Shown piece by piece: positions 14,012 to 20,489 of a stretch of DNA of 64,000 bases; position 1 is the stretch's first letter; each line of letters starts with the position of its first letter. Made by a program: the position numbers and the translations under genes. Location of the stretch: NCBI RefSeq assembly GCF_057098645.1, contig NZ_CM169472.1; one strand, 5' to 3'. The notes beneath the pieces were generated by a model, which was not told the origin of the DNA, ran no database searches, and worked only from the letters and a program-made list of their open reading frames with translations.

Positions 14012-14548
14012 ATGAAACATACTGTAGAAGTAATGATCCCCGAAGCGGAGATTAAAGCGCGTATCGCCGAACTGGGTCGTCAGATTACTGAGCGTTACAA
14101 AGACAGCGGCAGCGATATGGTGCTGGTGGGTCTGCTGCGTGGCTCATTTATGTTTATGGCGGACCTGTGCCGTGAAGTTCAGGTATCTCATGAAGTCGAC
14201 TTTATGACCGCCTCCAGCTACGGTAGCGGCATGTCCACCACCCGTGATGTGAAAATCCTCAAAGATCTGGATGAAGATATCCGTGGCAAGGACGTGCTGA
14301 TTGTTGAAGATATCATCGACTCGGGGAATACACTGTCGAAAGTGCGTGAGATCTTAAGCCTGCGCGAACCGAAGTCGTTGGCGATTTGTACGCTGCTGGA
14401 TAAACCGTCCCGTCGTGAAGTGAACGTCCCGGTAGAATTTATCGGTTTCTCGATCCCGGATGAGTTTGTGGTGGGTTACGGTATTGATTACGCACAGCGT
14501 TATCGTCATCTGCCGTATATCGGCAAAGTGATTCTGCTGGACGAGTAA
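14012..14548 (+). CDS. hpt: Hypoxanthine phosphoribosyltransferase
   Basis: ORF 13937..14548; [29 protein letters not shown]... from the ATG at 14012 gives 178 aa; an alternative in-frame ATG at 14000 (MVRDMKHT, 182 aa) cannot be excluded; PRPP-binding motif [13 protein letters not shown] is present. Confidence 0.92.
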
Positions 14549-14556
14549 GTGTGAAG

Positions 14557-14588
14557 TTGCCGGATGTGTTGCATCCGGCATGGCATTT
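14557..14588. terminator. Bidirectional rho-independent terminator between hpt and can
   Basis: Hairpin TTGCCGGATGtgttgCATCCGGCA followed by tggcatttttatttg between convergent genes. Confidence 0.7.
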
Positions 14589-15251
14589 TTATTTGTGGTT
14601 GGCGTGTTTCAGCTTGAGGTTGGAAATCCCATGACGGTAACGTTGCTCAAGGGTTTCGCGGTTGGTGGCAGTAACATCCAGATCACGCAGCAAGCCGTCG
14701 TGAATGCCATAGGCCCAGCCGTGAATGGTAACTTTCTGCCCGCGTTTCCACGCTGATTGCATAATGGTGGAGTGGCCCAGGTTATACACCTGTTCCATGA
14801 CGTTCAGTTCACACAAGGTATCCAGACGGCGCTCTTGCGGCATTTCGCCGAGCAATGAGCTATGTTTGAACCAGATATCGCGGATATGCAGCAGCCAGTT
14901 GTTGATAAGCCCCAGTTCCGGGTTTTCAACTGCGGCTTGTACGCCGCCGCAACCGTAGTGGCCACAGATAATAATGTGTTCAACTTCGAGTACATCCACT
15001 GCATACTGAACCACGGAAAGGCAGTTCAGGTCGGTGTGAATGACCAGGTTAGCAACATTACGGTGAACAAAGAGTTCGCCCGGCTCAAGACCGGTTAAAC
15101 GTTCTGCAGGAACGCGACTGTCGGAACATCCAATCCATAGAAAGCGCGGTTTTTGCGCTTGTGCCAGTTTCTCAAAAAACCCGGGATCCTCTTCCACCAG
15201 CATTTTTGACCATAGTGCATTGTTGCTGATGAGTGTATCTATGTCTTTCAT
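14589..15251 (-). CDS. can: Beta-class carbonic anhydrase 2
   Basis: 220-aa [50 protein letters not shown]...; beta-CA zinc ligands (CSDSR, HxxCG) are present. Confidence 0.95.
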
Positions 15252-17661: not shown

Positions 17662-18891
17662 ATGTACAAACAAGCTGTTATTCTCCTGCTGATGCTGTTT
17701 ACCGCAAGTGTCAGTGCCGCGTTACCTGCCCGTTATATGCAAACCATCGAAAATGCTGCGGTCTGGGCGCAAATTGGCGACAAGATGGTGACCGTGGGGA
17801 ATATTCGGGCCGGACAAATCATTGCCGTGGAGCCCACTGCCGCAAGTTATTACGCATTTAATTTTGGCTTTGGTAAAGGGTTTATCGATAAAGGGCATCT
17901 CGAGCCGGTTCAGGGGCGACAAAAAGTTGAAGACGGTTTGGGTGACCTCAACAAGCCGCTGAGTAATCAGAACTTAGTTACCTGGAAAGATACGCCGGTC
18001 TATAACGCGCCGAGTGCGGGCAGTGCGCCATTTGGGGTACTGGCGGACAATTTGCGCTACCCGATTTTGCATAAACTGAAAGACAGGTTAAATCAAACCT
18101 GGTATCAGGTCCGTATTGGCGATCGACTGGCCTATATCAGCGCGCTGGATGCCCAACCCGATAATGGCCTTCCGGTGCTAACTTATCACCATATTCTGCG
18201 CGACGAAGAAAACACCCGTTTTCGCCATACTTCGACGACCACCTCGGTACGCGCTTTCAATAACCAGATGGCCTGGCTGCGCGACAGGGGATACGCGACA
18301 CTGAGCATGGTGCAGCTGGAAGGTTACGTGAAGAATAAGATCAATCTCCCTGCGCGAGCGGTGGTGATTACCTTTGATGATGGCCTCAAGTCGGTGAGCC
18401 GCTATGCGTATCCTGTGTTGAAACAATATGGCATGAAGGCGACGGCGTTTATTGTTACCTCGCGCATCAAACGTCACCCGCAGAAGTGGAACCCAAAATC
18501 GCTGCAATTTATGAGCGTTTCTGAGCTTAACGAAATTCGCGATGTCTTTGATTTTCAGTCACATACCCATTTTTTGCATCGGGTGGATGGCTATCGCCGC
18601 CCCATATTACTGAGTCGTAGTGAGCACAATATTCTGTTTGATTTTGCACGTTCACGCCGCGCTCTGGCGCAATTTAATCCGCATGTCTGGTATCTTTCGT
18701 ATCCGTTTGGCGGATTTAATGACAAAGCCGTGAAGGCAGCAAACGATGCCGGATTTCACCTGGCGGTGACAACCATGAAAGGCAAAGTAAAACCGGGGGA
18801 TAATCCGTTGTTACTAAAACGACTTTATATCTTAAGAACGGATTCGCTGGAGACGATGTCGCGGCTGGTGAGTAACCAGCCGCAGGGATAA
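17662..18891 (+). CDS. yadE: Putative polysaccharide deacetylase family lipoprotein YadE
   Basis: 409-aa ORF with signal peptide [23 protein letters not shown] and a NodB-like deacetylase-type region (VITFDDG, THF motifs). Confidence 0.88.
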
Positions 18892-18894
18892 CAA

Positions 18895-19275
18895 TCAAGC
18901 AACCTGTACCGGAATCGCTTTCGCGGTACGTTTCATTTCATTGTCGCCTTCAAAATAGGCGACGTTGGGTCGCCAGGTGCGAGCTTCTTCATCTGGCATG
19001 GTAACGAAGCTGGCGATGATGACAATATCGCCGACACTGGCGCAGTGGGCCGCCGCACCGTTAACAGAAATAATTCTCGAACCGCGTTCTGCCGCGATGG
19101 CATAAGTGGAGAAACGCTTGCCGTTGGTGACATTCCAGATATCAATGGCTTCGTTTTCGAGAATACCGGCTGCGTCAAGAAAATCCTGGTCAATGGCGCA
19201 AGAACCTTCATAGTGCAGGTCCGCATGAGTCACTTTCACGCGGTGGAGTTTGCCCTGCAGCATCGTGCGAATCAT
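18895..19275 (-). CDS. panD: Aspartate 1-decarboxylase proenzyme
   Basis: 126-aa [36 protein letters not shown]..., including the G-S self-cleavage site (EGSCA). Confidence 0.96.
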
Positions 19276-19548
19276 AACTTCTACCTTTCTACCCTGTCGT
19301 TAACGAAGCAGGCGGTGCCTGCTTTGAGGAAATTCTCACGCAGTATTGCCCGATTTTTGTTTAGTGTCTACTCATCTGACGGCATTTGCATCAGCAGTTT
19401 GCGTACCGCGCCGAAGCGTGCCATGTATCGCCTGTAACGAATTGATATTTCTCTGAACGCTGCTCGGTAAACAATAAAGAGGTGGCTGACGATAGCACGC
19501 CTTGACTGGATACTGCCTTCACGCAAGACAACACGGAAGACAGGGAAG

Positions 19549-20421
19549 ATGGATGCACCGAGTACCACACCGCATGACGCGGTATTTAAACAATTTTTAA
19601 TGCATGCGGAGACGGCTCGCGACTTTCTGGAGATACATTTGCCAGTGGAATTACGCGAACTTTGTGACCTCAATACGCTTCATTTAGAGTCGGGGAGTTT
19701 CATTGAAGAGAGCCTGAAAGGACACAGCACGGACGTGCTCTATTCCGTACAAATGCAGGGCAATCCCGGTTATCTGCATGTAGTGATTGAACATCAAAGC
19801 AAGCCAGATAAGAAAATGGCTTTTCGCATGATGCGTTATTCTATTGCCGCCATGCACCGGCATCTGGAGGCTGACCACGATAAGCTGCCGCTGGTGGTGC
19901 CGATACTGTTTTATCAGGGCGAGGCCACACCTTATCCGCTCTCAATGTGCTGGTTTGATATGTTTTACTCGCCTGAGCTGGCGCGACGCGTCTATAACAG
20001 TCCTTTCCCGCTGGTGGATATCACTATCACACCGGATGACGAAATCATGCAACATCGGCGGATTGCGATTCTCGAACTACTGCAAAAACATATTCGCCAG
20101 CGCGACTTAATGTTATTGCTGGAGCAACTGGTCACGCTGATTGACGAAGGGTACACTAGCGGAAGTCAGTTAGTTGCCATGCAAAACTATATGCTGCAAC
20201 GCGGTCATACTGAACAAGCGGATTTGTTTTACGGTGTGTTGAGAGACAGGGAAACGGGAGGGGAGTCTATGATGACGCTGGCGCAGTGGTTTGAAGAGAG
20301 GGGAAGACAGGAGGAAAGGCAAGAATTCGTCCTGCGTCTTCTGAATAAAGGAATGTCTCGGGAAGACGTTGCAGAGATGGCAAATTTACCCCTTGCCGAG
20401 ATTGATAAGCTGATTAACTAA
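19549..20421 (+). CDS. rpnC: Rpn-family (YhgA-like, PD-(D/E)xK) recombination-promoting nuclease
   Basis: 290-aa ORF MDAPSTTPHDAVFKQFLMHAETARDFLEIHLPVELRE... recognised as the E. coli YadD/RpnC family; it sits between panD and panC as in E. coli; the exact 5' start is uncertain. Confidence 0.85.
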   Translation: MDAPSTTPHDAVFKQFLMHAETARDFLEIHLPVELRELCDLNTLHLESGSFIEESLKGHSTDVLYSVQMQGNPGYLHVVIEHQSKPDKKMAFRMMRYSIAAMHRHLEADHDKLPLVVPILFYQGEATPYPLSMCWFDMFYSPELARRVYNSPFPLVDITITPDDEIMQHRRIAILELLQKHIRQRDLMLLLEQLVTLIDEGYTSGSQLVAMQNYMLQRGHTEQADLFYGVLRDRETGGESMMTLAQWFEERGRQEERQEFVLRLLNKGMSREDVAEMANLPLAEIDKLIN

Positions 20422-20489
20422 GTTGTCTGCATCATCAGTTATAGCCAGATAATTGTTATTGTTAACTGACCAGATAATTAAGGGAACCT

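Follow-up and report, generated by a model that had tools for sequence, protein, structure and literature searches.

In Escherichia coli the mRNA of panD ends inside the convergent gene yadE, a few nucleotides beyond a perfect hairpin (hairpin A) that lies within the final yadE codons. The best explanation overall, to which we give a probability of about 60%, is that these convergent genes are packed tightly with no dedicated intergenic terminator, and that the panD end is defined by hairpin A in combination with Rho and trimming of the transcript.

The yadE-panD junction

The window, as the whole stretch of 64,000 nucleotides analysed here is called, is 100% identical to E. coli O145 RM9872 (E. 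coli O145:H28 genomes match at 100%), and the stretch is found in 5421 of 5426 complete E. coli genomes. The same gene pair with the same 3-bp gap is present in the RefSeq annotations of E. coli O145 RM9872 and K-12 MG1655 (MG1655 yadE 145081-146310, panD 146314-146694), and the junction is standard annotation and already known. Positions 18780-19000 are base-identical to MG1655, so that the published K-12 transcript maps transfer directly; adding 127419 to a window coordinate gives the MG1655 coordinate. Pfam assigns YadE to Polysacc_deac_1 (PF01522, E 1.5e-21) and PanD to Asp_decarbox (PF02261, E 7.5e-47), and RefSeq names the panD product aspartate 1-decarboxylase proenzyme. Features of the junction are listed in Table 1.

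Table 1. Coordinates of features at the yadE-panD junction (window numbering)
Feature	Position	Strand	Description and source
yadE	17662..18891	+	409-aa ORF; ORF list, RefSeq annotation, Pfam PF01522
Antisense-yadE stretch beyond hairpin A to the Rho region	18379..18856	-	Adams et al. 2021, Supplementary file 2
Steady-state panD mRNA 3' end	18853..18856	-	MG1655 146272-146275; Term-seq and TRS, transferred by identity
Hairpin A	18861..18883	-	perfect 9-bp stem GCGGCUGGU / ACCAGCCGC, 5-nt loop; inverted repeat I3
yadE stop codon	18889-18891	+	TAA
Spacer between the two stop codons	18892..18894	.	CAA, 3 bp; direct sequence read
panD	18895..19275	-	126-aa ORF; ORF list, RefSeq annotation, Pfam PF02261
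panD stop codon	18895-18897	-	plus-strand TCA, TGA on the minus strand
Hairpin B and U-rich tail	18905..18943	+	GUACCGGAA..UUC.CGGUAC then GUUUCAUUUCAUU; within the last panD codons

Direct reading of positions 18880-18898 gives ccgcagggaTAAcaaTCAa, and the sequence, the ORF list and RefSeq all bear out the earlier note that the two stop codons lie on opposite strands 3 bp apart. Nine convergent pairs are present in the window, with gaps of 70, 37, 201, 40, 3, 95, 34, 46 and 88 bp; the yadE/panD gap is the outlier among them, and this pair is the only one without space for an intergenic hairpin. The same note held that the gap leaves no room for a terminator. This is literally true of the gap, but a hairpin that forms a 3' end is embedded in the last codons of yadE.

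Upstream of yadE, the published primary yadH 3' end is at window 17095 (MG1655 144514, +), 42 nt after yadH, with a strong hairpin followed by UUUU, which indicates that the yadGH unit is distinct from yadI and yadE. A promoter of its own has been assigned to yadE by Reg-Seq (PMC12133099), and by the same source yadE is inducible by salt, phenazine methosulfate or stationary phase. YadE is an exported lipoprotein of the polysaccharide deacetylase family with links to the envelope and lipid A.

The panD 3' end and its antisense overlap with yadE

Two independent published datasets place the panD 3' end 36-39 nt inside the yadE ORF and 5-8 nt beyond hairpin A. Term-seq (Adams et al. 2021, PMC7815308, Supplementary file 1) reports it at 146275 (-), classed as 'primary' and as 'antisense' to yadE. 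This position occurs three times in the file, which is arranged as one tab per growth condition, and two of the entries carry 125366 and 41034 reads; the 61-nt context given in that file puts the terminal U of the transcript at window 18856. TRS (PMC10687069, Supplementary Data 2-4) reports a primary panD terminus at 146272/146273 (-) with a signal of 0.85-0.996. It gives the 3'UTR as 43 nt long and predicts a hairpin of -18.5 kcal/mol, with no run of U longer than 2. By our coordinates the panD 3'UTR is about 39-42 nt long and nearly all of it is antisense to the end of the yadE ORF, from which it follows that mature panD mRNA is complementary to that end over some 36-39 nt.

Mapping of 3' ends had been proposed in the earlier note as the check on its claim that each transcript must extend into the partner gene. 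In the published K-12 data the panD end is found beyond the junction, inside yadE, and not before it. For panD running into yadE the claim is upheld by both Term-seq and TRS; for the yadE side it draws on RNA-seq coverage and on logic. A plus-strand yadE 3' end is absent from both curated 3'-end lists (Term-seq, PMC7815308; TRS, PMC10687069), in which yadE appears only as the antisense label of the panD end. Any mRNA with the yadE stop codon reaches to within 3 nt of panD, and by the coordinates a full-length yadE mRNA must overlap the mature panD mRNA. ExcludonFinder (NAR 2025, PMC12288877) names yadE-panD among 165 convergent excludons of MG1655, using as its criterion transcript overlap in at least 50% of 58 MG1655 RNA-seq samples. 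Overlapping transcripts, the mark of a convergent excludon, are thus found both in the mapped panD end and in the published excludon listing, and the antisense 3' overlap of yadE and panD is supported as real and already published.

Transcription also continues beyond the mapped panD end. In Supplementary file 2 of PMC7815308, Rho termination antisense to yadE is assigned to a region at 145798 (-), with a Rho score of 7.2 (p 8e-27) and upstream/downstream reads of 214/27 in untreated cells and 412/373 with bicyclomycin. The region was called from 800-nt windows, and its approximate position is about 480 nt downstream of the mapped panD end, further into antisense yadE. Read-through 3' of the panD end is therefore bicyclomycin-sensitive in these data, at the resolution of an 800-nt window. 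The RNA past hairpin A is mildly C-rich, with a C/G ratio of 1.1-1.45 in the first 200 nt. In a test for rut-type composition, the ratio over positions 18379-18856 was 1.07, at the 65th percentile of the window background, and C-richness this mild does not settle the Rho loading site.

The rpnC-panC pair, next to yadE-panD, is also among the 165 convergent excludons (PMC12288877). A Rho region antisense to rpnC is listed at MG1655 147624(-) with a score of 16.9, and the primary panC 3' end is at 147903(-) (PMC7815308, PMC10687069). In the window, the region 19549-20795 carries rpnC (19549-20421) and then a 5'-truncated rpn-like pseudogene fragment (annotated at 20520-20699) that repeats the RpnC C-terminus. 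K-12 rpnC is longer (903 bp), and no rpn-like fragment is annotated there.

Structure and conservation of hairpin A

The stem of hairpin A, which can also be written GCGGCTGGT / ACCAGCCGC, overlies the yadE codons Ser-Arg-Leu-Val-Ser-Asn-Gln-Pro-Gln, within the last ten codons of the gene. The hairpin ends 5 nt before the yadE stop codon, and on the panD transcript it begins 11 nt after the panD stop codon. It is the sole perfect inverted repeat of at least 9 bp within 400 nt. The plus strand folds at -20.5 kcal/mol (z -4.97; none of 200 shuffles was equally stable), and folds of the minus strand form the same 9-bp stem, with -18.7 kcal/mol (z -3.62) for a 51-nt context. The sequence that comes after hairpin A is GACAUCGUCUCC on the minus strand and AGGGAUAACAAUC on the plus strand. 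Neither is a U-tract, and hairpin A is for this reason not a canonical intrinsic terminator, which consists of a GC-rich hairpin and a U-tract of 7-8 nt; nor was it picked up by a terminator consensus scan. It does have the form of a stable stem-loop just upstream of a steady-state 3' end without a U-rich tract. An Rfam search of positions 18300-19600 returned nothing above the gathering score, the two chance matches scoring 18 bits, for families whose gathering scores are 100 and 50.

Within the last panD codons there is another structure, hairpin B (18905-18930), with GUUUCAUUUCAUU, an interrupted U tail, after it. Its predicted fold (-11.4 kcal/mol, z -2.2) resembles a weak intrinsic terminator and makes it a candidate for yadE. 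The consensus scan caught a sub-hairpin of hairpin B, among 7 terminator-like sites where 3.5 +/- 1.9 were expected, which is about background. No 3' end is mapped at hairpin B in the Term-seq and TRS curated lists. As a conserved yadE terminator it was rejected, its arms drifting freely at synonymous sites among 45 distinct panD tails. The panD ORF also contains the perfect inverted repeats GTCGCCT/AGGCGAC (18943-18963) and GGCGAC/GTCGCC (18958-18974). One panD-internal repeat in this stretch (18943-18974) was flagged as terminator-like on the minus strand, with the tail TATTTTGAAG; no 3' end is reported there, and the resemblance is probably due to chance.

Loci of yadE were collected from one genome per species, and 67 distinct enterobacterial yadE sequences were analysed. 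Gaps of 1-6 bp separate yadE from panD in 40 of 46 intact panD-adjacent loci of other enterobacterial species: 3 bp in Escherichia, 3-6 bp in Citrobacter, 5 bp in Salmonella, and 1-6 bp in Enterobacter, Lelliottia, Leclercia and Klebsiella indica. Wider spacers are found in Kluyvera (32-35 bp), Franconibacter (46 bp) and Siccibacter (64 bp). Judged from these sequences, the tight yadE-panD gap is old and no accident of one strain. Two loci were left out, L052 (Citrobacter amalonaticus AUH_CA_2023_1) and L065 (Leclercia adecarboxylata NCTC13032). In both, yadE is seemingly truncated or frameshifted near its 3' end, the alignment stopping at residue 375-379 and the apparent panD gap being 93-104 bp; this disruption may reflect pseudogenisation or assembly error.

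The codons of the hairpin A stem show the lowest synonymous variation in yadE across the 67 distinct sequences. The Arg codon CGG and the Pro codon CCG are invariant in all 67, against median entropies of 1.37 and 1.34 bits for other conserved Arg and Pro codons, and the entropies of the stem codons Ser TCG (0.21) and Leu CTG (0.57) are likewise below the medians, which are 0.93 and 1.64. The eight lowest-entropy 6-codon windows, out of 263, all fall at the yadE 3' end, within the final 19 columns of the alignment (372-389 of 391). Part of this nucleotide conservation comes from the protein, as the C-terminal peptide SRL[IV]SNQPQG is itself conserved.

Where the stem does vary, pairing tends to be kept. 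Within Kluyvera, pair 19-33 passes from C-G through U-G to U-A. Pair 20-32 changes from U-A to G-C in Superficieibacter electus, in which the protein is also altered (Leu to Arg and Gln to Pro). YadE of this species (L018:3647-3694) ends in MARRVSNPPR*, one codon shorter, and retains a perfect 9-bp stem, GCGGCGGGT/ACCCGCCGC, residue changes having been accepted here and the pairing preserved. Pair 22-30 alternates between A-U and G-C, with minus-strand counts of 35 AU, 15 GU, 11 GC and 1 other. Three pairs of hairpin A thus carry double changes, and none of 500 shuffles reached the observed value on any measure, in a control that ignores phylogeny and for which there are few independent events.

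The variation is also biased between the strands. Paired cells make up 98.2% on the minus strand and 94.4% on the plus strand, and 20 distinct hairpin sequences contain 14 G.U pairs when read on the minus strand and 2 on the plus strand. The plus-strand mismatches are mostly A.C, which are G.U in minus-strand RNA. This bias indicates that the transcript converging on yadE is what is under selection, and not the yadE mRNA or the DNA, and together the comparisons point to hairpin A being kept by selection as a minus-strand RNA structure.

In 20 species yadE has as its convergent neighbour, at a distance of 0-6 bp, a fimbrial adhesin-like gene in place of panD (loci L006, L009, L010, L016, L018, L029, L031, L033, L035, L036, L040, L044, L053, L057, L058, L060, L066, L067, L068 and L072). 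Measured from stop to stop, the ORF has about 360-420 codons, and the three that were scanned have a C-terminal Fimbrial domain (PF00419). These species indicate that the pan genes and a fimbrial operon are interchangeable at this position across genera, and hairpin A is retained in all 20 of them. It has been lost in Siccibacter and Franconibacter, where the 64-bp and 46-bp spacers, respectively, contain a canonical panD terminator composed of a hairpin and a T-run; the two are sister-like genera, and this association between loss of hairpin A and an intergenic terminator is effectively one event. In Kluyvera hairpin A is still present, in addition to a GC hairpin in the intergenic spacer. 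The pattern fits a role for hairpin A as a 3'-end element for any transcript that converges on yadE.

Formation of the panD end, alternatives and significance

The following course of events is proposed. RNA polymerase transcribing panD runs on into antisense yadE, as the published maps demonstrate, and the nascent panD RNA can fold into the stable, GC-rich hairpin A, which has no U-tract. Hairpin A would be inefficient as an intrinsic terminator, and transcription would continue for up to about 0.5 kb until stopped by Rho, in a region that is placed at low resolution. According to the model of Dar & Sorek, 3'-to-5' exonucleases (PNPase, RNase II) would then trim the tail back to hairpin A, and this trimming would leave the sharp steady-state panD end that is observed 5-8 nt past the stem. 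The hairpin would also be expected to raise the stability of panD mRNA. It may serve whichever gene converges on yadE, panD in Escherichia and the fimbrial adhesin gene in other genera. The model derives from Rho-dependent transcripts that end just past stable stem-loops without U-tracts after trimming by PNPase or RNase II (Dar & Sorek 2018, PMC6061677).

Alternatively, hairpin A may itself bring polymerase to a pause or a stop, or it may work by way of collisions between polymerases. In a collision-type overlapping bidirectional terminator, the yadE and panD polymerases would pause at hairpin A and collide, and trailing polymerases would release them. That model needs a stem-loop in the convergent overlap and yields uniform 3' ends a few nucleotides past it (bioRxiv 10.1101/2022.10.23.513370), and the palindromic stem of hairpin A is perfect, folds on either strand and lies next to a sharp panD end. 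The efficiency of such a terminator grows with traffic on both genes, however, and neither curated list contains a yadE 3' end. A plus-strand end 5-8 nt past the stem would moreover fall on or before the yadE stop codon (18889-18891) and create a non-stop mRNA. With bicyclomycin-sensitive read-through present downstream and a G.U asymmetry that favours the minus strand only, we consider collision unlikely. The overlap might alternatively have been selected as a regulatory excludon, in which overlapping transcription, or an RNA duplex cleaved by RNase III, makes yadE and panD expression antagonistic. The mature RNAs share at least 36 nt of complementarity, antisense transcription reaches about 0.5 kb into yadE, and the authors of the excludon list that includes the pair propose a functional relationship (PMC12288877). 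Inclusion in that list depends on coverage thresholds only, and antisense transcription is limited by Rho. YadE is exported and linked to the envelope and lipid A, PanD makes beta-alanine, and no shared pathway is supported; the 'same metabolic pathway' rationale given for the pair (PMC12288877) is unsupported by what is known of YadE and was rejected. In 20 species yadE is equally tight against an unrelated fimbrial gene, contrary to a regulatory partnership specific to panD. Selection of the packing for antagonistic expression is therefore very unlikely in our judgement, and regulatory interference between the two genes is possible but probably minor.

Hairpin A might also be a by-product of the conserved YadE peptide and codon preference, with a stable structure that blocks exonucleases and no selection at the RNA level. 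The peptide SRL[IV]SNQPQG is indeed highly conserved, most stem positions are invariant and so uninformative on structure, and by the account of Dar & Sorek (PMC6061677) any stable stem-loop can set a steady-state end. Against this, the synonymous sites of the stem are the least variable in yadE. The invariant CGG is among the rarer Arg codons of E. coli. Superficieibacter electus keeps its perfect 9-bp stem with two amino-acid changes, the Kluyvera pair follows the path from C-G through U-G to U-A, mismatches are strand-biased towards G.U in minus-strand RNA, and Siccibacter and Franconibacter, which have an intergenic terminator, have lost the stem although their peptide frame is similar. 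A by-product seems doubtful on these grounds. We lean slightly towards hairpin A being a selected dual-use element in the last ten yadE codons, which would stabilise or terminate the transcript of any converging gene. That gene is panD in the genera Escherichia, Citrobacter and Salmonella; many species of Enterobacter, Citrobacter and Kluyvera have a fimbrial adhesin gene there.

The junction shares features with several known systems. As in other excludons (PMC12288877), the gap is short and a 3'-end element lies inside the transcription unit of the neighbour, although the mean intergenic distance of those listed is 95 nt, compared with 3 nt at yadE-panD. Like the protective 3' stem-loops (PMC6061677; a hypothesis of Peters et al.), hairpin A has a stem of terminator strength without a U-tract, a precise end and a bicyclomycin-sensitive region beyond; unlike them, it is situated not in an intergenic 3'UTR but among the codons of the opposing gene, and is consequently under a dual constraint, from protein and RNA. 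Overlapping bidirectional terminators (Ju et al. 2019; Wang et al., bioRxiv 10.1101/2022.10.23.513370) likewise have a palindromic hairpin at the boundary of a convergent pair and no canonical U-tract or A-tract. They differ in that yadE/panD has a mapped end on the minus strand only in the Term-seq and TRS lists, Rho sensitivity downstream and G.U asymmetry on one strand. The hpt/can pair in the same window (14548-14589, 40-bp gap) contrasts with yadE/panD in being a textbook overlapping bidirectional intrinsic terminator. The hpt transcript ends at MG1655 142003(+) and the can transcript at 141973(-); the two share about 30 nt on a single intergenic hairpin that has A and U runs on either side (PMC7815308, PMC10687069). 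The termination by Rho of untranslated panD read-through in yadE resembles the suppression of antisense transcription by Rho (Peters et al. 2012, as cited in PMC7815308); in that dataset Rho regions fall into the antisense class more often than into any other, and the yadE region is one of 1078 (PMC7815308).

The convergence of yadE and panD is in itself ordinary. There are about 704 convergent pairs in E. coli according to one preprint, and tight convergent packing with 3' overlap is common in this species. Hairpin A is a further example of an element already known in kind, either as a stem-loop at the 3' end of Rho-dependent transcripts or as a terminator inside the transcription unit of a neighbour. 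What appears to be new is a modest detail, the evidence from sequence evolution for selection at the level of minus-strand RNA on a hairpin embedded in coding sequence, whichever gene converges.

If hairpin A does have such a dual use, the YadE C-terminus would be constrained at synonymous as well as non-synonymous sites, and the hairpin would be dispensable where an intergenic intrinsic terminator is available. It would then be a clear natural case of the mRNA 3'-end signal of one gene lying inside an opposing ORF and tracked by covariation over the Enterobacteriaceae. As a compact example of selection for RNA structure acting on an opposite-strand coding sequence, it can mislead analyses of the dN/dS type. 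With the end of panD mRNA set inside yadE, deletion or recoding of the yadE 3' end, as in Keio-type knockouts or codon-optimised constructs, could alter panD mRNA stability and with it the supply of beta-alanine and of CoA precursors.
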